In this document: in pieces, positions 2 to 46,381 of the stretch | How the letters are laid out: each line of letters opens with the position of its first letter | Numbering within the stretch: the stretch's first letter is position 1 | Origin: an uncultured Candidatus Finniella sp. | GTDB taxonomy: Bacteria > Pseudomonadota > Alphaproteobacteria > Paracaedibacterales > VGCI01 | Assembly (NCBI GenBank): GCA_964424515.1 | Contig: CAYRJJ010000001.1 | Coordinates: 1,747 to 65,746 of the forward strand | Direction of reading: 5' to 3' | DNA length: 64,000 bases | Notes under the pieces: model-generated | Told to the model about the DNA's origin: nothing | The model's database searches: none | The model's input: the letters and a program-made list of their open reading frames with translations, nothing else | Translations under genes and position numbers: made by a program

Positions 2-1831
2 GTTTTTTCCTGTCGGGCGCAACAGCCCGTCCGGTTGCCAAAAGTACTTGTGCAGGGTGCGGCTTTACCGGCTCCTAACCCCCTGGATAGCGCTGACAGC
101 ACGCGCATGACAGCGCAAGATTGGGAGCAACAGCAATCCGTAACGCTCAGTGACGCCTTACGTCGCCTTCCCGGAGCGTATGTTACGCAAAGCGGGGGAG
201 CAGGAATTGGGCAAGAAGCAAGGGTTTCTTTTCGGGGAACAGGGCACGCCAATACAGCTGTCATCGTAAATGGCATGACCATCCATGACGCCGGGTCTTT
301 TGATGGGGCATTTAATTTGTCAAGATGGACCCTGGATGATGTGGCGGAGATTCATGTGATCCGGGGGCCGATGAGTAGTTTATATGGTCCAAGCGGCATA
401 GGCGGCGTTGTTGTTATTGAAACGAAAAAAGGCCGGGGTCCTCATACAACATTTGCAAAAGCGGAAGGCGGATCATTTCATACGGCTTCACAAATGGTTG
501 GCATCCAGGGACAAAAAAACCTGGTGGACTATCATGTTGCTGGCTCACGCCTTCAATCAGCAGGTCCATCCCCGACGCCGGCCCGGTTTCTGTCCCAAAT
601 TCAGGAAAAAGCAAATAACCCTTTGCGCCAGGAGACCATGGCCGCATGCTTGGGGGCAGGACCAGAATCTGCCCATATTTCTTTGGTCAGCCGGTATTTA
701 ACGCGTCGGCTTGGGTGGCGTGATACGCCTGTTTCCCCTTATCCCTGGCGTCAAAATTTGTCAGAAAGTTTCAACCGTCTCCAGGGGCATTTTGAAAATG
801 ACACAGGGCGCTGGAGCCATGAAGTCGGCCTTGGCTATTACCAAAATGACCTGACGAGCACGCATCCGGCAGAGAGTAAAGTTATGAGAAACGGATCTCA
901 AGCTCAAATCGACTGGCGGCAAATTTATGGCATGACGGACCACCTTCACCTTCAAATGGCAACAGACTATTCACAAGAAAAACTCTATTGGTATAAGATG
1001 CCAGACCTTAACCATAATTTTACAACATCTCACGGGGGAGCCGGGGGCGCCCTTTCTTTCAGGGTCCATGAGAATTTAATGATAACAGGTTCAAGCCGGA
1101 TCGATAAGTATCAAGGGATCGCCCCTACAGCAACCTATCGAGTGGGAGGCCAGTATGACATTGAAAAAATGACGGTAAAAGGAGGAATGGGGAGCGCCTT
1201 TAAAGCGCCAACCCTGCAACAAAAATTTTATAAAGACTCATTTTTCACGGGTAATCCCGGCTTAAAACCCGAGCGGAGCCTGGGGTGGGATGCGGGCATA
1301 GAGCGTCCTTTTTTTCAAAACCGCCTAACTGTGGGCGTGACGCTTTTCCAAAATCGCATGCGGGATCTTATTGCAAGCGCATCAGATGGTAAGTCTCTGA
1401 TAAATATTGATAAATCAAGGACGGAAGGGATGGAGGGCCTCATACGCTTTCACCCTGTAGTCGATTGGACTTTTGAAGTCTCTCATACCTACACCCAAGC
1501 CTGGGATGAAAAAACTGCCAAACCCTTGATCGGTAACCCCCTCAATAAAACAAGTTTTTGTATGATTGGGCAGATGACTTCCGAGTGGCAAATCAGTGGA
1601 AATCTTCTTTACATTAGCCCACGGCATACCTTCGATGCGGTAACCTTTGTAAGAGTTAAAACACCGAGCTATACCATCATCGGCGCTGAAACATCCTATC
1701 AACTGAATGAGCAGTGGCAAATTTACGGGCGGGGTGAAAATATACTGAACCGCCGGTATGAAAGCCCAAAAAGCTTGCAACAACCAGGTTTCGGCCTTTA
1801 TGCCGGGGTACGGGCGCGATGCTCGGGTTAA
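2..1831 (+). CDS. TonB-dependent outer-membrane receptor (BtuB/CirA-like), 5' end probably outside window
   Basis: 598-aa ORF. The frame stays open back to base 2 and the listed start is TTG. Plug-domain motifs are present (TLSDALRRLPGAYV, SFRGTG, IHVIRGPMSSLYG), followed by a long beta-barrel-like region. An overlapping TonB-like gene follows. Confidence 0.85.
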   Translation, partial: VFSCRAQQPVRLPKVLVQGAALPAPNPLDSADSTRMTAQDWEQQQSVTLSDALRRLPGAYVTQSGGAGIGQEARVSFRGTGHANTAVIVNGMTIHDAGSFDGAFNLSRWTLDDVAEIHVIRGPMSSLYGPSGIGGVVVIETKKGRGPHTTFAKAEGGSFHTASQMVGIQGQKNLVDYHVAGSRLQSAGPSPTPARFLSQIQEKANNPLRQETMAACLGAGPESAHISLVSRYLTRRLGWRDTPVSPYPWRQNLSESFNRLQGHFENDTGRWSHEVGLGYYQNDLTSTHPAESKVMRNGSQAQIDWRQIYGMTDHLHLQMATDYSQEKLYWYKMPDLNHNFTTSHGGAGGALSFRVHENLMITGSSRIDKYQGIAPTATYRVGGQYDIEKMTVKGGMGSAFKAPTLQQKFYKDSFFTGNPGLKPERSLGWDAGIERPFFQNRLTVGVTLFQNRMRDLIASASDGKSLINIDKSRTEGMEGLIRFHPVVDWTFEVSHTYTQAWDEKTAKPLIGNPLNKTSFCMIGQMTSEWQISGNLLYISPRHTFDAVTFVRVKTPSYTIIGAETSYQLNEQWQIYGRGENILNRRYESPKSLQQPGFGLYAGVRARCSG

Positions 1832-2460
1832 GGGCAATTTTAGCGACAGAAGGACTTTGGCCAGCGGGTGTTGCGGCATTTATGATTCATAGCCTGGTCA
1901 TTTCTGCGCTTGCCTGGAACAGGGCGCATTTACAAGGGGGCATGCAACGAGCCTTAAAAAATAATTTTTGCGTGGAAGCCGTATTTGAGCAAGGAACAGG
2001 GGGTGACACGTTACCCCAGGCCATAGCTTATGACAGTTATAGCGCGGAGCAGAGAGATAGAGCTTTTCAAAAGCCTAGGCCGCTTGACCCAACAAACCGC
2101 GTCGCTTATAAAGAGCCTTTCAAAAAACCTGTACAAAAAAAGAGTCAAGAAGGAAATCAACCGTCCTTGTTCGCATCAACGCCTCCTTTAACATCATCTT
2201 CTTCAGAGGCAGGTGATTCACTGCCCCTCTATAATCCCCCGCCTGTTTACCCCCGTGAAGCAAGACGGCAGAAAATTCAAGGTGTGGTTCTGGTTCAGGT
2301 ATTTTTGACAGCGACAGGCGAGGTTGAAAAAATCGTCCCTCTTCCCCCTCGTATAGATCCCCTCCTGGAAGAGGCAGCCTTAAAAGCCATCTATAAATGG
2401 AAATTTCAGCCAGGCGTGGGACCAGTAGAAGTCCCCATAGAATTTAAGCTAATGGTATGA
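1819..2460 (+). CDS. TonB-family energy transducer (N-terminal TM anchor, Pro-rich linker, TonB C-terminal domain)
   Basis: TM segment GLWPAGVAAFMIHSLVISALAW. Pro-rich stretch PLYNPPPVYP. C-terminal motif YPREARRQKIQGVVLVQVFL...AALKAIYKWKFQPG. Overlaps the receptor stop by 13 nt. Confidence 0.8.
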   Translation: MLGLRAILATEGLWPAGVAAFMIHSLVISALAWNRAHLQGGMQRALKNNFCVEAVFEQGTGGDTLPQAIAYDSYSAEQRDRAFQKPRPLDPTNRVAYKEPFKKPVQKKSQEGNQPSLFASTPPLTSSSSEAGDSLPLYNPPPVYPREARRQKIQGVVLVQVFLTATGEVEKIVPLPPRIDPLLEEAALKAIYKWKFQPGVGPVEVPIEFKLMV

Positions 2461-2468
2461 CAAAAGAA

Positions 2469-2681
2469 CAGCGATTCCCGCTAGGGAAACATATAAGCTT
2501 TTGTTTTTATAAATTTTCTTTCAAATATATCTGCGAAAAAATCACATATCTCTTTGTTATTTATGGGAAAAGTTATTCATATAAAATCAATAACAATAAT
2601 ATAAGGGGATTTTTCACAAATATATTTTAATAAAACAATTTATTATCCAATCATTAGCCTATTTTTCAGCGGGAATCGCTG
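2469..2681. mobile_element. MITE-like element R1, copy 1 (213 bp, 14-bp TIR CAGCGATTCCCGCT, 9-bp TSD ACAAAAGAA)
   Basis: Left end 2469-2482 is cagcgattcccgct. Right end 2668-2681 is agcgggaatcgctg, its perfect reverse complement. Flanking direct repeat acaaaagaa at 2460-2468 and 2682-2690. AT-rich non-coding interior. A second copy is at 33774-33936. Confidence 0.75.
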
Positions 2682-2806
2682 ACAAAAGAAGGATTATCTT
2701 TAACATACTTAATCATGTCTAATTATTGAAATAACGCGTATTCCTGTTTCTTTGATGCTCAATTACGGATGAGCTTGAAGCGACAAAGAACACGGGAATT
2801 ACTCCT

Positions 2807-4210
2807 TTAAGTAGAAAATTTGCTTTTTAATCCGAAAGCCTGTTGAATATGGCATTGGAATTCTTCAGGCGTGAGCAGTTCAAGGTCGATGGCAGCCTGT
2901 TCTAGAGAGATATCTTCTAACAACGCCCGTTTTGCTAATTTGGCGGCATTGTCATACCCGATGATGGGGTTTAAGGCTGTTACCAGCATGAGCGAATTGG
3001 CGACATTTTGCTTCAGGCGCTGGATGTTAGGCGCAATATCCTTTAAGCAATTGTCCGTAAAGCTTCGGGCAGCATCCGCCAAAAGGCGGGTGGACTGCAA
3101 AACGTTAGCGATGATGACAGGTTTGAAGACGTTGAGTTCAAAGTGGCCTTGGCTACCCGCGATGGTTACTGTCGTATGGTTACCCATGACCTGGCAGGCG
3201 ACCATGGTCATGGCTTCGGCTTGGGTGGGGTTGACTTTGCCTGGCATAATTGAGGAGCCAGGCTCATTTTCAGGCAAATAAATTTCCCCTAAACCGCAAC
3301 GGGGGCCGGATCCTAACCACCGGATATCATTGGCAATTTTCATCATACTCACGGCCAGCACATTCAAAGCGCCGGAGAGTTCGACCAAGGCATCATGAGA
3401 CGCAAGGGCTTCAAACTTATTGGCGGCTGTTACGAAAGGAAAGCCGGTGAAATCCGCAACGGCCTTAGCAAAGAGGCGGTCAAATGTTGGCGGACAATTT
3501 AAGCCTGTTCCCACGGCCGTTCCCCCCTGGGCTAAGGGATAAAGACGCCTCAAACAATCGTGGAGGCGGGCTAATCCAAGTTCCATTTGAGTCGCATATC
3601 CGGAAAATTCCTGGCCCAGCGTGAGGGGTGTTGCATCTTGAAGGTGGGTTCGTCCGATTTTGAGAAGGTGCGCAAAAGCTTCCGCTTTATTATTCAAATG
3701 ATGGCGCAAGTGCGTGATGGCAGGGATCAACTCCGTGTGGACTTCCAAAACAGCGGCAATGTGCATGGCGGTCGGGAACGAATCATTCGTTGATTGTCCA
3801 TAATTTACATGATCGTTGGGGTGTACAGGTTTTTTTGCTCCCAAAGGGAACCCGAGCTGTTCATTAGCCCGATTGGCGATGACTTCATTCGCATTCATGT
3901 TGGTTTGCGTGCCCGATCCTGTTTGCCAAACCACCAGGGGAAAATGCTCGTCCCATTTACCGTCAATCACCTCATCTGCGGCCTGTATGATGGCTTGCGC
4001 GATGTCGGAGGGCAGCGTTTTTAAAATGAGGTTCGTTTGCGCTGCGCACCGTTTTTGAATGGCTAACGCCCGAATGAGGGGCAGGGGCATCCGTTCGTGG
4101 CCGATGCGGAAATTTTGACGGGACCGTTCCGTTTGGGCGCCCCAATAGGCTCCTTTAGGGATCTTTACGTCGCCCATAGAATCCGATTCACTGCGAAATT
4201 CTTCTGCCAT
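2807..4210 (-). CDS. fumC: Fumarate hydratase, class II
   Basis: 467 aa. Fumarate-lyase signature [13 protein letters not shown], plus [10 protein letters not shown] and other class II fumarase motifs. Confidence 0.95.
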
Positions 4211-4284: not shown

Positions 4285-4728
4285 ATGACTTCTAAATGGA
4301 TGACGCTTGCGTTAGCTGAAGCCAAAGATGCCGGGGCGCGGGGAGAGGCGCCTGTTGGCGCTATCCTTGTGTGGGACGGCAAAGTCATTGCAGCGGCGGG
4401 GAACCGGGTGGAGGAATTGTCTGATCCCACAGCCCATGCTGAAATTTTGGCGCTCCGGGAAGCAGCCCGCCTTTTGGGAACGCCGCGGCTCAGGGGGGGC
4501 GATTTATATGTCACGCTGGAGCCGTGCCCCATGTGCGCCACCGCTTTGTCCTTTGCCCGTATTAAGCGGGTCTTCTTTGGCGCTTTTGATCCCAAAGGAG
4601 GGGGGGTTGACCATGGCCCCCGTATTTTTGATCAGCCCACCTGTCATCACCGTCCCGATGTTTTTGGAGGATTATCTGAACAAGTCTGCGCGACGCTCCT
4701 GACAGACTTTTTTGAAGCGAAGCGATAA
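4285..4728 (+). CDS. tadA: tRNA-specific adenosine deaminase
   Basis: 147 aa. Zinc-binding deaminase motifs HAEILAL and LEPCPMCATAL. Size is typical of TadA. Confidence 0.9.
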   Translation: MTSKWMTLALAEAKDAGARGEAPVGAILVWDGKVIAAAGNRVEELSDPTAHAEILALREAARLLGTPRLRGGDLYVTLEPCPMCATALSFARIKRVFFGAFDPKGGGVDHGPRIFDQPTCHHRPDVFGGLSEQVCATLLTDFFEAKR

Positions 4729-4999: not shown

Positions 5000-7000
5000 A
5001 TGATGACCAGTCAGCTTTTAAAAATTGAGTCACCCTTTGTTCCGGCAGGGGACCAGCCCCAAGCGATTGACGCTCTGGTTTCCAACCTTGAAGCCGGAGC
5101 CAAAAATCAGGTTCTACTGGGCGTGACGGGGTCGGGTAAAACCTTCACGATGGCCCATGTTATTCAAGCTGTTCAACGTCCCGCCTTAATCCTCGCTCCC
5201 AATAAAATTCTAGCGGCGCAATTGTATGGAGAGATGAAATCATTCTTTCCCAACAATGCGGTAGAATACTTTGTTTCCTATTACGATTATTACCAACCTG
5301 AAGCTTATGTTGCGCGCACTGATACTTATATTGAGAAAGAATCTTCCATTAATGAGCAGATTGACCGGATGCGTCATTCAGCGACCCGGTCATTGCTGGA
5401 ACGCCCTGATGTCATTATTGTGGCGAGCATTTCATGTATTTACGGCATTGGAGGGGTCGAAACGTATAGTGAGATGATCCTTCCCTTGAAGGTCGGTCAA
5501 GAGATTGAAAGGGGGGATTTTATTCGCCGGTTGGTAGAACTGCACTACAAGCGCAATGATCTGTCTTTTGTTCGAGGGACTTTTCGCGTTCGGGGCGATG
5601 TGGTGGAATTGTTTCCGGCCCACTATGAAGACCGCGCCTGGCGGATCAGCTTTTTCGGGGATGAAGTGGAATCCATTCAGGAAATGGATTCTTTAACGGG
5701 AGAACGCTACCAGACGCTAGAGGTAATCCGTATCTTTGCGAACAGTCACTATGTGACGCCCGGGCCAACCATGCAACAGGCCATCAAACAAATTCAGGTG
5801 GATCTGGGGAGTCGATTGGAAGAATTCCGCCAGGCGAATAAACTCCTGGAAGCCCAGCGGCTGGAGCAACGCATTAAATTTGATGTGGAAATGATGGCGG
5901 CGACCGGATCATGCGCAGGAATTGAGAATTACTCCCGTTACCTTACGGGCCGTGCCCCGGGAGAACCGCCGCCCACCCTCTTTGAATATTTGCCAAAACA
6001 TGCGATTTTGATTATTGATGAAAGCCATGTGACGGTTCCTCAACTCAATGGCATGTACAAGGGGGATCGCTCACGCAAGGAAACGTTGAGTGAATATGGC
6101 TTCCGGTTGCCCTCTTGCCGGGACAACCGTCCTTTAAAATTTGAGGAGTGGGAAGCATTACGTCCCCAAACCGTGTTTGTGTCCGCAACGCCCGGCCCGT
6201 GGGAACTGCAACAAACGCAAGGAGAGTTTATTGAACAAGTTATCCGCCCTACGGGGCTGATAGACCCCATTTGCGTCGTTCGCCCGTGTGACCATCAAGT
6301 GGATGACCTCATTGCCGAATGCCGGGAAACGGTTGGCAAGGGGATGCGTGTTCTGGTGACTACGCTGACCAAGAAAATGGCGGAAGCCCTGACGGAATAT
6401 TTAGCGGAAGCAGGCTTTAAAGTTCGCTATATGCATTCTGATGTGGAGACGCTAGAACGTATTGAAATTATTCGCAATTTACGCTTAGGTCTTTGTGATA
6501 TACTGATCGGGATCAACCTCTTGCGTGAAGGGCTGGATATTCCTGAATGCGGACTTGTGACGATTTTGGATGCGGATAAAGAGGGATATTTGCGGTCCAG
6601 GACATCCCTCATTCAAACGATCGGGCGGGCGGCCCGCAACGCGGAAGGGCGCGTCATTCTTTATGCGGATAAGATGACCCGGTCTATGACGGAAGCTTTG
6701 GGAGAAACGAACCGTCGCCGCGAAAAGCAGCAAGCCTATAATAGCGCCCATGGCATTACGCCAGAGACGATCAAGAGAACCATCACCAATATTTTAGGCA
6801 GCGTCTATGAGGCGGACCATTTAACGGTTGAGATGCAGGACGTGCCCCATTTGGTTGGAAAGTCCTTGAAATCCCATCTGACCCATTTGGAGCGTCGCAT
6901 GCGGGACGCGGCAGCCAACCTTGAATTTGAAGAGGCCGCGAAATTGCGGGATGAAATCCGCCGCCTTGAAGCGCACGATTTGGGGTTGGGGAAGGTATAA
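5000..7000 (+). CDS. uvrB: Excinuclease ABC subunit B
   Basis: 666 aa. Walker [13 protein letters not shown] box IIDESHVT, helicase C motifs, and a C-terminal UVR motif ([17 protein letters not shown]). Confidence 0.97.
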
Positions 7001-8082: not shown

Positions 8083-8456
8083 CCCTGATCCCCCTTGCGT
8101 TATGATAGTTTTGACTCGGATTCCAGTGTCATTATATTTTTTATAATTTATTTTTCTATAAACACATTGAAAATGCAATATATGTTTTTCAGGATAGTAT
8201 TTTATCAGGTTTTGTGGATTTATCCGGGATCTCTACCGCTTTCTTTTTTCCACTTATGGAGAGAAAATGGCGAATTCCAGGCCAGAAATAGGGCGGCCAA
8301 CAACCTTCTCTTAATCATTCTTTAACGCCTGCGCTAGTATTATTTTAGAAGATGGTTATAAAAGATTCGGGTGGGTTATTGATTCTACCGTTGCCTCTTT
8401 CATAACAGATTATTAAGAAAATGTTTTTGATTAAGGTTTTATTAAGGAGTTTTATC

Positions 8457-8981
8457 ATGACTAACCATAGTGTATTTTTCAGGGCGCTTCCTTTTTTGTG
8501 CATCACGCTCTTTCTTTCTTCGTTAGCCTGGGGAGCTGAAAATGAGGATGATGCCGCAAACCAGCCAGAGGAGGCGACGGCAAATGCGGGTAGCGCGCCC
8601 TCTCCTTCTTCCGAGCAACCGTCAGAATCTGAACACGAAGAGGCTGGACAAGAAGATAAAGCAGATACGGCTGATGCATCCTCTCCTCCTTCCGAGCAAC
8701 CGCCAGAATCTGAACACGATGAGAGCGGACACGAGAGTGAAGCAGATGCGCCAGCAAGTGAGAAAGATGAGCAGTCTGAACTTATAGATGAAGAAGCCGA
8801 ATACAATAAAAAACAATTAGAGCACAACAAAAAGGTACTTAAGGTTAATAAAGCTGTAGCGGAACTTAAAGCGGAACAAAAAGAACTGGATAAGGAAGGA
8901 AAGGAAATTGCAAAGAAGGAAAAACAGCTTAAACGACAGTCCTCTTCCCCTGCATCGCATAAGCATAAGGAAGAAGATTAG
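8457..8981 (+). CDS. Secreted acidic protein with tandem 27-aa Ser/Glu/Pro repeat and Lys/Glu coiled-coil tail (orphan)
   Basis: ATG at 8457 is preceded by AAGGAG (8444-8449). Signal peptide ...FLSSLAWG/AE. Two tandem 81-bp units lie at about 8598-8678 and 8679-8755. The C-terminus is KAEQKELDKEGKEIAKKEKQLK. Confidence 0.6.
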   Translation: MTNHSVFFRALPFLCITLFLSSLAWGAENEDDAANQPEEATANAGSAPSPSSEQPSESEHEEAGQEDKADTADASSPPSEQPPESEHDESGHESEADAPASEKDEQSELIDEEAEYNKKQLEHNKKVLKVNKAVAELKAEQKELDKEGKEIAKKEKQLKRQSSSPASHKHKEED

Positions 8982-10475: not shown

Positions 10476-10660
10476 GGCGTTTTATTTGTCCTTGCTTGTT
10501 AGGTTCCATCCATATTTATAGTAGGGAATCATGACTTCAAAAAGGCAAAAAATCTACCATTTCTGTCATGGCGAGAACACTTGAAAAAAATCTCGTTGAT
10601 GGTTTCCGGAATGAGCATGGCCGTTGGCTCCGCCATAACAAAAAATTGGCCATTTTCCTG

Positions 10661-10806
10661 GGGCGTGTCATCAATTGAAGGATTTTGTGGCGAAAATGGC
10701 GGGTTTTGAGAACCGTATCGCAAGAATACTTAAGGCGTATTTTTAGAAACGGAAGCGCAGAAAACTGCCATTTGCAGTCCAAAAGCCGATAGTTGATAAC
10801 ACGCCC
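10661..10806. mobile_element. MITE-like element R3, copy 1 (146 bp, imperfect ~16-bp TIR GGGCGTGTYATCAAYT)
   Basis: The ends gggcgtgtcatcaatt and agttgataacacgccc are inverted repeats. The whole element is about 85-88% identical to the reverse complement of 45936-46079. It fills the gap just 3' of the folA stop. Confidence 0.7.
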
Positions 10807-11342
10807 TAAACTCTTTTTCTTTTTTCCCGTCCTGAAGGGCTAGGAAACCTGGTATATTTATAAATTGTAAAGTCCTTCTCTTTTCTGATCATTTCTTGAT
10901 CCCAGCCTTCTAAAAGTTCCAAAGGGAAAATAGTGTCCCCTTCATAAAATTTATGGATTTGCGTCAATAAAAATTTGTTCACAAGGTTGGCCTTCAAGAA
11001 TAGCTTTGTCATTTCTGCGCCGCCAATCATGTAGCTTTCCTTTTGGAACGGTAAATCCGTTAATGCCAGAAAATCGTTCAATGAAGAAACAAAAACAATC
11101 GTTTCATTTAAGAAAAATGGTTCTTTATATTTTTTTGAAAAAACAATATTGAAACGATCTTTTAAAATGGTTGGCGGTATGGACTCATAAGTTTTGCGGC
11201 CCATAATCATGAGGCGCTGATATGTCGTACAGCGGAAATGTTCTAACTCTTCAGGATAAGACCAGGGTAATGTTCCCATTTTTCCAATAACACCCCTCGG
11301 ATCACAAGCCATAAGGCCAACAATTTTTCTGATATGCATCAT
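10806..11342 (-). CDS. folA: Dihydrofolate reductase
   Basis: 178 aa. IGKMGTLPW, MGRKTYESIP and YMIGGAEM motifs of type I DHFR. Confidence 0.8.
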   Translation of the reverse strand: MMHIRKIVGLMACDPRGVIGKMGTLPWSYPEELEHFRCTTYQRLMIMGRKTYESIPPTILKDRFNIVFSKKYKEPFFLNETIVFVSSLNDFLALTDLPFQKESYMIGGAEMTKLFLKANLVNKFLLTQIHKFYEGDTIFPLELLEGWDQEMIRKEKDFTIYKYTRFPSPSGREKRKRV

Positions 11343-31013: not shown

Positions 31014-33680
31014 GTGATGAAATCCATACCCATCAAGTCCAGTCCTTTTTTCTCTTTAAACGATATTGAAAAAGATTTTTCTCCAGCTTCTTTCGCGAAG
31101 GGGCAAGCGTACCAAACAGAAAACCGCGTTACGCACCTTGAGATAGGCCAGGATAAGCAGGGCCATTGGAAAATCAAATCCATTATTCAAGGCTCCCGAA
31201 ACAATATCTACCACACAGATATTATTGTGAATGTCAAGGATCGGACCTTTGGTTTTGATGGGTACTGTTCCTGCCCCATGGACCATAATTGCAAGCATGT
31301 GGCAGCTTCCCTTATTGAAGCCATCTCCCGGCGCACCCTTTCATCCTCATCTATAGATACCGTTGAAACCACGGCGGAAGTCCCAACGCCCATTTTTCGT
31401 ATCATGACGAATAATGTGCGTTTTAAAGTGCGCCCCTGGTCCATGACGCAGGATGAAAAGAAGTTTTTGGCTCATCTTTCCTTTTCTTATTCAGGAGGGC
31501 GCATTCCGCATACTGAACCCATTGACAAAAACAGCGTTCCCCGCAACCTTAAAGCTGAACAAGAATTTCTCTCTCATCCCCTTTTAAGCCACTGGAAAAA
31601 ATTGGGCGACTTTGCTCATCAAATTGACCCTCTCACCCTGGAAATAGGCAATCTCATTCTTGATGTAAAAACCCCAGGTATTCAGACCTTGTTGACTGAT
31701 GAAAAAGTCATCCAGACAGCCATGGCGCTGGCAAACGAAATTTTTCCTCAACTCCTGTCTGAAGGCTGGCAAATTGAAACAGATCCAAGCTTTCCTTTTC
31801 AGTCGGTTAAAAATATGGGGGAATGGTATGCCAACATTGATAATGAGACGACCTCTGGTATCGATTGGTTTGATTTGGAAATGGGTATTGAAATTGACGG
31901 AAAACGCATTAACATCCTCCCCCATATCGTCCGTTTGCTGCGTAATCCCAATGTTCGCTCTGCTATGGACAATGACCAGTTAAGTGATGCGGAAATGATC
32001 TATACCCAGCTGGACGACGGCCGCTATCTGCCCATCCCGGCTAAGAAAATTCAATTTATTGCCCGTACCCTTATAGAACTCTATGACTTTAATGCCTTAA
32101 CCCATGATGGCCGTTTGCGCCTTTCCACATGGCAGTCCGCCCAGTTAGCGGAACTTGAACAGGCCATGTCGGCTAGCCAGCTACGCTGGTTCGGTTCAAG
32201 TCAATTGCGTGAGCTTGGCAACAAACTGCGCGACTTTAAAATAATTGAGAAAGTTATTCTTCCGGCAAGCTTTCATAATACCTTGCGACCCTATCAGGAA
32301 GAGGGCGTTAGCTGGTTACAATTTTTGCGAATCCACAATCTTAATGGTATTTTAGCCGATGATATGGGGCTGGGAAAAACGATTCAAGCATTGGCTCATA
32401 TTATAGTGGAAAAAGAAAGCGGACGGATGAAAAGTCCCGTCCTGATTGTTGCGCCTACCAGTTTGATGGCCAACTGGAAATCTGAAGCGGCCCGCTTCGC
32501 TCCTCTTTTGAAAGTCCTCATTCTCCAGGGAAATGAACGCAAAAACGACTTTGACCGTATAAAGGATCATGACCTCATTTTAACAACCTACCCCCTCCTT
32601 TCACGGGATAAGGATGTTCTTCTTGCCCATGGTTACCATTTACTGATTTTGGATGAAGCCCAGGTGATCAAAAATCCAAATACCATGGCTCACCGCATTG
32701 TCCAGCAGCTTAAAGCGAACCATCGCTTGTGCTTGACGGGAACCCCGATGGAAAATCACTTGGGCGAACTCTGGTCGTTATTTCATTTTCTTATGCCCGG
32801 ATTTTTGGGCGACAATAAAAAATTTACGCAAACATTCCGGAAGCCCATTGAAAAACGACAAGACCAGGATCGCCAGCATGTCTTAACCCGCCGGGTTCGT
32901 CCCTTCGTCCTGCGTCGCACAAAGGAAGAGGTTGTTTCAGAGCTGCCCGCAAAAACTGAAATTATTCAGCATATTGATCTTTTGCCAACCCAACGGGACC
33001 TTTATGAATCCGTTCGCTTGGCCATGCACTCAAAAATTCAAGCTGAAATTGAAGAAAGAGGATTTAAATACAGCCAGATTGTTATTTTGGACGCTTTGCT
33101 CAAAATGCGGCAAGTCTGTTGTGATCCCCGCCTCTTAAAAATTGAGTCCGCTAAAAATGTGCGGGAGTCCGCCAAGCTTCAGTTTTTAATTGATACCCTT
33201 CCTGAAATGATTGAGGAAAACCGCAAAATTCTTCTCTTCTCCCAGTTTACCAGCATGCTGGCGTTGATTGAACAAGAACTCAAAAAACTCAAAATCCCTT
33301 ATGTTCTTCTCACAGGTCAAACGAAAGACCGTCAAACCCCCATTAATGACTTTCAATCCGGCAAAGTCCCTTTATTCCTGATCAGCTTGAAAGCAGGGGG
33401 AACCGGCCTTAACCTGACAGCAGCGGATACAGTTATCCATTATGACCCGTGGTGGAACCCGGCTGTGGAAAACCAGGCGACCGACCGGGCATACCGTATT
33501 GGCCAGGACAAACCCGTCTTTGTCTATAAACTGGTGACAGTTGGTACGGTCGAAGAAAAAATCCTGGACATGCAGCATTATAAAGCAGCCCTCTTTGCGG
33601 GCGTGTTTGATGGCCATACGTCAAGCAGGGGGCCAATCACGCCGGAAGATCTCGAAGCTTTGTTTGAGGCGTTACCTTAA
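31014..33680 (+). CDS. SNF2-family helicase with N-terminal SWIM zinc finger
   Basis: 888 aa. SWIM motif CSCPMDHNCKHVAA. SNF2 motifs LADDMGLGKT, LILDEAQVIKN, LTGTPMEN, and helicase-C LISLKAGGTGLNLTAADTVIHYDPWWNPAVENQATDRAYRIGQ. Confidence 0.9.
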   Translation: MMKSIPIKSSPFFSLNDIEKDFSPASFAKGQAYQTENRVTHLEIGQDKQGHWKIKSIIQGSRNNIYHTDIIVNVKDRTFGFDGYCSCPMDHNCKHVAASLIEAISRRTLSSSSIDTVETTAEVPTPIFRIMTNNVRFKVRPWSMTQDEKKFLAHLSFSYSGGRIPHTEPIDKNSVPRNLKAEQEFLSHPLLSHWKKLGDFAHQIDPLTLEIGNLILDVKTPGIQTLLTDEKVIQTAMALANEIFPQLLSEGWQIETDPSFPFQSVKNMGEWYANIDNETTSGIDWFDLEMGIEIDGKRINILPHIVRLLRNPNVRSAMDNDQLSDAEMIYTQLDDGRYLPIPAKKIQFIARTLIELYDFNALTHDGRLRLSTWQSAQLAELEQAMSASQLRWFGSSQLRELGNKLRDFKIIEKVILPASFHNTLRPYQEEGVSWLQFLRIHNLNGILADDMGLGKTIQALAHIIVEKESGRMKSPVLIVAPTSLMANWKSEAARFAPLLKVLILQGNERKNDFDRIKDHDLILTTYPLLSRDKDVLLAHGYHLLILDEAQVIKNPNTMAHRIVQQLKANHRLCLTGTPMENHLGELWSLFHFLMPGFLGDNKKFTQTFRKPIEKRQDQDRQHVLTRRVRPFVLRRTKEEVVSELPAKTEIIQHIDLLPTQRDLYESVRLAMHSKIQAEIEERGFKYSQIVILDALLKMRQVCCDPRLLKIESAKNVRESAKLQFLIDTLPEMIEENRKILLFSQFTSMLALIEQELKKLKIPYVLLTGQTKDRQTPINDFQSGKVPLFLISLKAGGTGLNLTAADTVIHYDPWWNPAVENQATDRAYRIGQDKPVFVYKLVTVGTVEEKILDMQHYKAALFAGVFDGHTSSRGPITPEDLEALFEALP

Positions 33681-33773: not shown

Positions 33774-33936
33774 CAGCGACTCCCGCTGAAAAACAGGCAA
33801 ATGATTTGATAATAAATTGTTTTATTAAGATATATTTGCGAAAAATCCCCCTATACTATTGATTTTATATGAATAATTATTCCCATCAATAACAAGGAGA
33901 TATGTCATTTTTTTGCAGATATAGCGGGAATTGCTC
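33774..33936. mobile_element. MITE-like element R1, copy 2 (163 bp, degenerate TIRs, opposite orientation to copy 1)
   Basis: Ends are cagcgactcccgct and agcgggaattgctc. The interior aligns at about 88% to the reverse complement of 2469-2681, with one ~45-bp and one 6-bp gap. No TSD is visible. Confidence 0.7.
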
Positions 33937-42884: not shown

Positions 42885-43135
42885 GGTCTAGCCGGCTTTA
42901 ATTCGCAGCATAGGACAAAGTAACGACAATTTTTCACCATAGCCCTAAGGGGGATCCAGACCCGACTGAACGTTCCGCCATACTATATGCTCCTTCTTGC
43001 ACCCGATAATGGGAAAACTATAAGGTATTGAGATAGTGAACTCAAGGGGTTTGGCGGAATTGTTTTTCTTCCATAGACCATCCTTCTTCATACTGTAAAA
43101 ATACTTCCCGGCATTCTTGATGTATTTTAATAAAA

Positions 43136-43373
43136 CCTGATTACCAACAATGTTCAGCTTGCTTTTGGGGCTTATTAAAACTAGGAGAATTCTTGATGTT
43201 TTACGACACATACCCCTAAATTTGACCAGGATTTTGTAAAAATAAACCGTCTAAAGCCAGTTGCTACGACAAAAATTAACCTCCATAACATATACTTAAA
43301 CCCAAGGAATCACTGGCTAAATCAATGAATTTCCTAGTCCTGAAAAGCAAGCTGAACATTGTTGGTAATCAGG
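43136..43373. mobile_element. MITE-like element R6 (238 bp, perfect 31-bp TIRs, 8-bp TSD TAATAAAA)
   Basis: 43136-43166 is cctgattaccaacaatgttcagcttgctttt, the exact reverse complement of 43343-43373. Flanking direct repeat taataaaa at 43128-43135 and 43374-43381. There is no ORF of transposase size inside. Confidence 0.8.
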
Positions 43374-43424
43374 TAATAAAATGATCTGCGCCGGGTTTCG
43401 CTTCTCATCGCGCCTGCCAGATAG

Positions 43425-45321: not shown

Positions 45322-45936
45322 ATGTTTCGTAAATTCTCGCACTGGTTTGATTCTCCCCCTGCGGGCAAAGCTTCTCATCATGCAGGGGGGCGACCTTGCG
45401 GGTCTCCGGGGTGCCTTGATGAAGGAATGTACCGGGCGCCAAAGTCGCGGCATCACTTGGAATTGGGGGTGGATGACTGGCATTGGTTTTGCCTGATTCA
45501 CGTGCGCGACTATAATGCCCAATGGAATTATTACAGCAATATGTCAGAGACGCAGATTGAACAGGAACGCCGTGCAGATATGACATGGCAACGTCCCTCA
45601 TGGCCCCTTGGGGCTTTTTCGGGCATGCAAGCCGGGAAAAAAAGAGGGCAGCAGGCCCATTCCGGACAATCATTTCAAGATCCCTTTGACCTTTTTAAGG
45701 ATGCCCCTTCATCCCCCCATGCTTTTCCCCAGCCAGGTTTTTCTCCCCGGTCCCCGGAAGGGAAAGCGCTCACCATTTTTGGGTTATCCTACCCTTATTC
45801 GCAGAGTGAGCTGCGGCAACGGTACCGGACCCTTGTCAAAAAGAACCATCCGGATACCAATGGGGGTAGCCGAGAAGCGGAAGAAGCCATTAAGCGCATT
45901 AATGAGGCATATGAAGTTCTGAAAGGGATCTGCTAG
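45322..45936 (+). CDS. C-terminal J-domain protein
   Basis: 204 aa. The C-terminus LRQRYRTLVKKNHPDTNGGSREAEEAIKRINEAYEVLK is a J-domain with HPD. The N-terminus is Cys/His/Trp-rich. Confidence 0.8.
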   Translation: MFRKFSHWFDSPPAGKASHHAGGRPCGSPGCLDEGMYRAPKSRHHLELGVDDWHWFCLIHVRDYNAQWNYYSNMSETQIEQERRADMTWQRPSWPLGAFSGMQAGKKRGQQAHSGQSFQDPFDLFKDAPSSPHAFPQPGFSPRSPEGKALTIFGLSYPYSQSELRQRYRTLVKKNHPDTNGGSREAEEAIKRINEAYEVLKGIC

Positions 45937-46079
45937 GGCGCCTCATCAATTGTCATCTTTTGGTCTGCAAGTGGCGGTTTTCTGCGCTTCCGTTTCTAAA
46001 AATACGTCTTTGTATTCTGCGTTACGGCTCTCGAAACCCGCCATTTTCGCCACAAAATCCTTCAATTGATGACATGCCC
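45936..46079. mobile_element. MITE-like element R3, copy 2 (144 bp, inverted relative to copy 1)
   Basis: It aligns end to end with the reverse complement of 10661-10806. It starts within or at the stop codon of the J-domain gene. Confidence 0.7.
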
Positions 46080-46381
46080 TAGGGGACGGGTGGGTTTTCA
46101 GTCCGTTTCCAGCCGGCAATGATAGTTGTGCTCATTAACAGTCTTTAAACTTTTACTCTCTAGGCTCCCTCCACTTTTGTAAAAATAGCAGGACAAAGTA
46201 TGTAATTTATTCAAAATAAACAATAAATTAAAAAGGTTGGATAGAACATAAGCCATTATGGGCAATTTAAAAATTTGACCCATCCTGCGGGCAATCTCTA
46301 TAACCTCCCTGTGTGGTTCAATTTTGCTCCCGCTTAACTCTGCGGTTGCTATGTCGCTGCGAGTCAGAAAGGATGAGGATC

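Follow-up and report, generated by a model that had tools for sequence, protein, structure and literature searches.

A short palindromic MITE in a Paracaedibacter-like alphaproteobacterium and an IS family with a predicted Tn5-like transposase that probably moves it

The closest described counterparts of the repeat family reported here, which we call R1, are the MaeMITEa-h families of Microcystis aeruginosa NIES-843, MITEs of 150–435 bp (PMC2779907). R1 elements (163–213 bp) resemble them in being short and intergenic, in having no transposase gene and in showing inverted repeats and several copies (PMC2779907). They differ in that their host is a Paracaedibacter-like alphaproteobacterium, that they have no similarity to any record searched, and that we document for them a partner IS family, a 9-bp target duplication and an insertion that is polymorphic between strains, from few copies so far. 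Other short repeats of bacteria are built differently: REP sequences are 20–40-bp palindromes that make no duplication and have a RAYT partner, Correia elements have 26-bp repeats and a TA duplication, and Rickettsia palindromic elements (RPEs) are inserted in frame in genes. We rejected REP/BIME, Correia/ERIC-type and Rickettsia palindromic elements as identities for R1, because its duplication is 9 bp long, its 14-nt repeats match those of a DDE IS and its copies are intergenic. Among autonomous elements, Tn5 (IS50) and IS10 have a single ORF between short TIRs and make a 9-bp target duplication, with ends that begin CTGACTC... and CTGAGAG..., respectively. The candidate partner of R1 shares this organization and duplication length, and its predicted fold is nearest to that of Tn5, but its ends are CAGCRATTCCCGC and sequence profiles do not detect the relationship. 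One ISNCY subgroup of ISfinder (ISMae2) also has a 9-bp duplication, with ends that start with CAGGG. Elements on cyanobacterial plasmids that PGAP annotates as 'ISNCY' (Acaryochloris marina S15, Gloeothece and Nostoc) encode transposases homologous to that of the partner at ~29–37% identity; they are distant relatives, and their ends differ from those of R1 past the first 8 nt.

In the window (the whole stretch of 64,000 nucleotides that was analysed), the first R1 element, copy A, occupies positions 2469–2681 of the forward strand. It is a 213-bp, AT-rich, non-coding and near-palindromic MITE. Its left TIR, CAGCGATTCCCGCT (2469–2482, forward strand), and its right TIR (2668–2681, reverse strand), which reads AGCGGGAATCGCTG as paired with the left one and CAGCGATTCCCGCTGAAAAA when read inwards, are 14 nt long and 100% complementary, exactly as a sequence-only reading of this DNA had claimed. 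The left 14-mer has no other exact occurrence in the 64 kb, and when up to three mismatches are allowed the only good additional matches are the two ends of the second R1 element, copy B. The same reading had claimed a 9-bp target duplication, and ACAAAAGAA is indeed present at both flanks, at 2460–2468 and 2682–2690. The first base of the left repeat is also the last base of the TGA stop codon of a tonB-like gene. For this direct repeat, the repeat finder returned 11 nt (TGACAAAAGAA) rather than 9 bp, because the final TG of the right TIR matches the TG of the upstream stop codon by chance.

Copy A lies in the intergenic space between the tonB-like gene and a class II fumarate hydratase gene (2807–4210, reverse strand) that is convergent with it. 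The tonB-like ORF (1819–2460, forward strand; 213 aa), whose stop codon abuts the insertion and whose orthologue on contig L002 matches Pfam TonB_C, follows a TonB-dependent receptor gene (35–1831, forward strand); beyond the fumarase gene are genes for a deaminase (4285–4728, forward strand) and UvrB (5000–7000, forward strand). Assemblies of Candidatus Paracaedibacter and of Paracaedibacteraceae hold the best named relatives of the fumarase and of the SNF2 helicase encoded upstream of copy B, which places the window in a Paracaedibacter-like (Holosporales) metagenome-assembled genome. In the space that separates copy A from the fumarase gene, a long hairpin at 2738–2802, with a fold z-score of only −1.7, may be a shared terminator of the tonB-like and fumarase genes, in which case tonB transcripts would cross the MITE first. 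Scans for promoters and terminators found no more than weak matches to the consensus.

To compare this locus with that of sister strains, we reached their contigs through members of the 90% clusters of the fumarase (L002 and L003) and of the helicase; exact-protein look-ups of the TonB-like and fumarase proteins of the window had given no match. On L002 (ENA ERZ28614347) and L003 (ENA ERZ15184948), which are 95–97% identical to the window, there is a single ACAAAAGAA and no element: CAAAAGAAGGATTATC directly follows the stop codon of the tonB-like gene, and the sequence reads uninterrupted as ...GGTATGACAAAAGAAGGATTATC.... The alignment is otherwise colinear with the window minus the element and one repeat. 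Because both contigs carry an empty site with one ACAAAAGAA, copy A is a true and recent insertion with a 9-bp target duplication, and the filled and empty orthologous sites together document the mobility expected of a MITE. Copy A is thus a recent, strain-specific insertion directly after the tonB-like stop codon.

Two further differences between the strains were observed in this region. L002 and L003 carry 13 extra bases, CAGCGGTTCAGCC, at window position ~2707/2708, 26 bp downstream of the insertion point, which the window does not have; the start of this sequence, CAGCG.TTC, resembles the start of the TIR, possibly by chance. On a third contig, L001 (Logan SRR32119647), the region beyond the fumarase 3′ end (~6150–6502) holds a different sequence in place of the tonB-like gene, which indicates a local rearrangement, and this sequence includes another inverted-repeat element, GTGCTCTGTCATTCCT...AGGAATGACAGAGCAC.

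Copy B, at 33774–33936 on the reverse strand, is a 163-bp element inverted relative to copy A. It lies 93 bp downstream of the stop codon of the SNF2-family helicase ORF (31014–33680, forward strand). The claim of an inverted second copy about 88% identical to the first is borne out by 143 matches in 163 positions (87.7%) and by a profile search (E = 1e-48); a profile of five R1 copies finds exactly two copies in the window, A and B, and no fragments. The terminal repeats of copy B are CAGCGACTCCCGCT (33774–33787, forward strand; one mismatch), which corresponds to the right end of copy A and is perfect in the sister strain represented by L036, and GAGCAATTCCCGCT (33923–33936, reverse strand; two mismatches). 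The second repeat is joined to internal sequence by a deletion of 44 bp that in copy A lie directly inside the TIR (2483–2526), and 6 bp are likewise found in copy A only. Copy B has no target duplication. A loss of ~45 bp near one end and degenerate TIRs had been proposed for this copy; both stand, with the correction that the deletion is internal, because copy B retains both TIRs.

Copy B is found at the orthologous site, with identical junctions and the same 44-bp deletion, on three contigs: L036 (Logan SRR32119647), L038 (ERZ15184948) and L039 (ERZ28614347). L038 shares its sample with L003, and L039 shares its sample with L002; neither L003 nor L002 has copy A. Because copy B is present in both samples that lack copy A, copy B predates the split of the strains and copy A postdates it, which agrees with the sequence-only reading that the family has copies of different ages. 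The loss of 44 bp and of the duplication came after the insertion of copy B, which is the older of the two and is fixed in the lineage. It differs from its orthologues by 2.5–4.3%, and the surrounding, mostly coding DNA differs by 1–4%; this similarity indicates no special constraint on the element.

With the right-end 20-mer, CAGCGAYTCCCGCTGAAAAA, as query, a scan of the metagenome collection yielded three more full-length R1 copies, each of 206–208 bp, in the NCBI metagenome JACCDN01 (contigs L016, L023 and L028). They are 84–88% identical to copy A by BLAST and 87–91% identical in an alignment of the five copies. The copy on L016 has perfect TIRs and the 9-bp duplication CGAGTCTTT on both sides; all R1 copies other than this one and copy A have one or two mismatches in their TIRs. 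The copy on L028 has a 7/9 duplication, and that on L023 has none. In total, R1 proper is represented by only five distinct insertions, two in the 64-kb window and three in JACCDN01. When all fetched loci were searched for a full IS next to R1, by TIR-like sites with matching 9-mers at IS-like distances, the result was MITE-sized elements only. Other collections gave nothing comparable: a scan of the genome collection with CAGCGAYTCCCGCTGAAAAA returned nine matches, all chance matches of 20–21 nt without extension; a scan of viral contigs with an internal R1 motif returned three AT-rich chance matches; and blastn of R1 against plasmids returned none. No paper turned up in a full-text search of the literature for the terminal repeat sequence, and none came up that mentions Paracaedibacter and MITEs together.

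R1 has no coding capacity: most copies have stops in all frames, and tblastn detected no transposase similarity inside R1. At 213 bp and 163 bp and without a transposase gene, copies A and B have the length of MITEs. The two halves of the element are inverted copies of each other over ~96 nt, and as a single strand it forms one long hairpin (−28.6 kcal/mol, z = −4.6). This hairpin, the location of both window copies just downstream of genes and the retention of copy B in 4/4 strains examined could all be accommodated if the repeat were mainly a structural or regulatory RNA or DNA recruited by the host, such as a 3′ UTR stabilizer, a terminator or a small RNA, and were kept by selection rather than as a selfish element. 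We consider this very unlikely. Rfam, at gathering thresholds, has no match anywhere in the window; the divergence of copy B is like that of its surroundings; close strains function without copy A; and matches to terminators and promoters are weak. The placement of the copies is also variable. A position immediately 3′ of a gene, which had been claimed for the two window copies, holds for copy A, at the stop codon, and for copy B, 93 bp after one, but is not a rule for the family: all copies of R1 and of the two sibling families described below are intergenic or at gene ends, some of them beside 5′ ends or further away, with no fixed relation to gene 3′ ends.

Short dispersed repeats are abundant in the window beyond R1. 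At 43135–43374 there is a second MITE-like element of 240 bp, with 45-nt inverted ends (87% complementary) and AATAAA at each flank; over its first 121 bp it matches the end of L016, the metagenome contig that carries an R1 copy, with 100% identity. A third intergenic repeat family, of ~152 bp, has two members in inverted orientation (10657–10808 and 45934–46083; 86–92% identity), whose ends resemble inverted repeats, about TAGGGCGTGTCATCAATTG. Four dispersed pairs of 34–94 nt and 80–92% identity (8974–9066/52840–52932, 40063–40156/59462–59555, 47829–47876/58634–58681 and 46982–47015/58534–58567) lie partly at gene ends. Two tandem 81-bp units with 77% identity (8580–8741) are located inside a long ORF (8406–8978, forward strand), and any gene there would therefore encode a repeat.

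The scan with CAGCGAYTCCCGCTGAAAAA also revealed two unrelated families, with elements of 136 bp and 84 bp, that have the 20-nt terminus of R1 but different interiors. The 136-bp family has six copies in JGI Ga0215267 and Ga0215266, each with 8/9 or 9/9 matches between its 9-bp duplications, and the 84-bp element, on contig L022, has CTCCTGAAG on both sides; 7/7 sibling copies therefore show duplications matching at 8–9 of 9 positions. Across R1 and its siblings, the 9-bp duplication has a different sequence at each site, as expected of MITEs. This variability bears on the proposal that R1 is a small integrative element brought in by site-specific recombination, with the 9-bp repeats as a duplicated attachment core. 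The perfect direct repeat around copy A would be compatible with such entry, but because the flanking 9-mers differ from locus to locus (ACAAAAGAA, CGAGTCTTT, ATATCACTC, ACGATTAGA and others), the proposal is effectively refuted; moreover, no recombinase gene is associated with the element, and inverted-repeat ends are typical of DDE elements. The empty site, the differing 9-bp duplications, the lack of coding capacity and a matching IS all support the interpretation of R1 as a MITE that the sequence-only reading had advanced.

A search for an IS with TIRs matching those of R1 was successful (contigs L017 and L034 and an IS present in six copies), and the elements on L034 and in the six-copy IS have the same duplication length. 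The likely partner of R1 is a 1.6-kb IS with the termini CAGC(A/G)ATTCCCGC. On L017, an intact ORF of 441 aa comes after the terminus CAGCGATTCCCGCTGAAAAA, and the right end of the IS lies beyond the end of the contig; the right end of copy A, read inwards, is identical to this left IS end at 20/20 positions. The complete IS on L034 is 1606 bp long, runs between the ends CAGCAATTCCCGCT and CAGCAATTCCCGCC and is flanked on each side by the duplication TGCTCTTCG. A 4.26-Mb contig contains six identical copies of a 1636-bp IS, each with a different perfect 9-bp duplication, which brings the number of complete IS copies with perfect 9-bp duplications to seven; the ends of the L034 element and of these six copies in one genome read CAGCAATTCCCGC(T/C). 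Contig L035 is exactly the IS, and a copy on a Legionella israelensis plasmid has the ends CAGCGGTTCCCGGC and CAGCGGCTCCCGCC. Autonomous ISs with matching ends and the same duplication length thus exist and are candidates for the partner. These closer relatives (L017, L034, the six-copy IS and the Legionella israelensis copy) are unnamed or are annotated as 'transposase' or 'hypothetical protein'.

Several other loci carry variants of this IS or remnants of it. Behind the terminus CAGCGATTCCCGCTGAAAAA, L021 has an HNH-like ORF, a 455-aa transposase homologue and a degenerate right repeat. This IS-like unit (82–2928) measures ~2.85 kb, and the ORF between its left end and the transposase gene, on the opposite strand, encodes 343 aa with an HNH-type motif recognized by eye and is a possible passenger gene. 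We saw no target duplication around the unit. L029 contains an internally deleted IS copy with the left end CAGCAATTCCCGCT that adjoins a 136-bp MITE. This MITE, with its own duplication, lies at the very end of the deleted IS (1082–1977), and on L023 (8504–8953) the R1 copy, which has no duplication, directly adjoins the decayed C-terminus of a transposase. These arrangements suggest nested insertion into IS copies or rearrangement at them.

The transposase of the partner IS is a DDE-type protein of ~437 aa with more than 7,900 homologues at E ≤ 1e-20, many of which are encoded on contigs of ~1.6–2 kb. Most homologues lack a match in Pfam, and 'hypothetical protein' is the name given to many. 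The L017 protein scores 23.0 bits with Pfam DDE_Tnp_1, exactly the cut-off, and 6/10 members match this model at E ≤ 1, so this domain is plausible, whereas the NCBIfam IS4 models score only 20.6 bits (cut-off 115) and 16.6 bits (cut-off 152) and thus do not place the protein in the IS4 family by sequence. The IS4 signature is Y-(2)-R-(3)-E-(6)-K. In our alignment, R336, E340 and K348 are invariant within RARWKIENETFNTLK, which by eye contains R-(3)-E but has seven rather than six residues before K and G where Y is expected. A sequence-profile search of the PDB with the transposase alignment detected no chain, Tn5 included. The predicted structure gave a clearer assignment: for an AlphaFold model with a pLDDT of 89.6 and a pTM of 0.90, the top five PDB matches in a fold comparison are all Tn5 transposase (E = 2e-11 to 4e-10, TM = 0.50–0.58), which points to a Tn5-like catalytic fold. 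The protein is also homologous to transposases named 'ISNCY family transposase', with tblastn matches of 35–37% identity on plasmids of Acaryochloris, Gloeothece and Nostoc; in the element from Acaryochloris, the ends start CAGCAATT and the 9-bp duplication is perfect.

Taken together, these data lead us to the interpretation that R1 is a MITE moved in trans by the DDE transposase of the 1.6-kb IS, through shared termini and a 9-bp staggered cut, with copy A as a recent insertion and copy B as an older, fixed one (probability roughly 0.88). In such a mechanism, the features of this imperfect palindrome of ~207–213 bp that matter for transposition would be its 14–20-nt ends only. Bound to both inverted ends, the transposase would cut the element out. 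Insertion would follow at a target broken with a 9-bp stagger, and the 9-bp duplication would result from repair at that point. Because the predicted fold is Tn5-like and the 9-bp duplications agree with the 9 bp of Tn5 and IS10, cut-and-paste chemistry in the style of these elements, acting on the R1 ends in trans, is likely. Which transposase copy moved R1, and any effect of the insertions on neighbouring genes, we can only infer.

Alternatively, R1 could be a true MITE that is moved by a different, unsampled transposase, its likeness to the ends of the Tn5-like IS being coincidental or ancestral. Similarity between R1 and the sampled IS copies is limited to the first 20–31 nt, which means that R1 did not arise from any of them by a simple deletion. 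No transposase homologue is encoded in the 64-kb window, and the remnant beside the R1 copy on L023 is only 30–42% identical to the sampled transposases. A coincidental or ancestral likeness nevertheless seems unlikely to us, since R1 and the L017 IS have 20/20 terminal bases in common, all 14 complete IS or MITE insertions with CAGCRATTCCCGC ends and a full duplication have the same unusual duplication length of 9 bp, and the MITE copies on L029 and L023 adjoin remnants of exactly the partner transposase family. We thus favour mobilization of R1 by the 1.6-kb IS family.

R1 is ordinary in kind and changes no concept; in the sources searched we found no description of the family or of its connection with this IS group. 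It is a clean and well-documented MITE from the Paracaedibacteraceae (Holosporales), protist-associated bacteria, with a record that spans its ends, its duplication, an empty site, the relative ages of its copies and a partner IS family. Such repeats break assemblies, and polymorphic insertions like copy A are usable as strain markers. A very large and nearly unannotated transposase family can now be tied to defined ends, a 9-bp duplication and, on the predicted structure, a Tn5-like fold, and this link could improve the annotation of ISs and MITEs in metagenome-assembled genomes. We also put forward, tentatively and at somewhat less than even odds, that one little-characterized Tn5-like transposase lineage, whose ends are unusually conserved, with 13–20 nt identical across distant hosts, has repeatedly and independently spawned unrelated MITEs in three organisms (R1, the 136-bp family and the 84-bp element) and is still active in protist-associated populations, the continuing activity being suggested by the strain-specific copy A. 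If so, the identical ends across hosts would reflect recent horizontal spread of the IS, and the MITE of each host would be of local origin.
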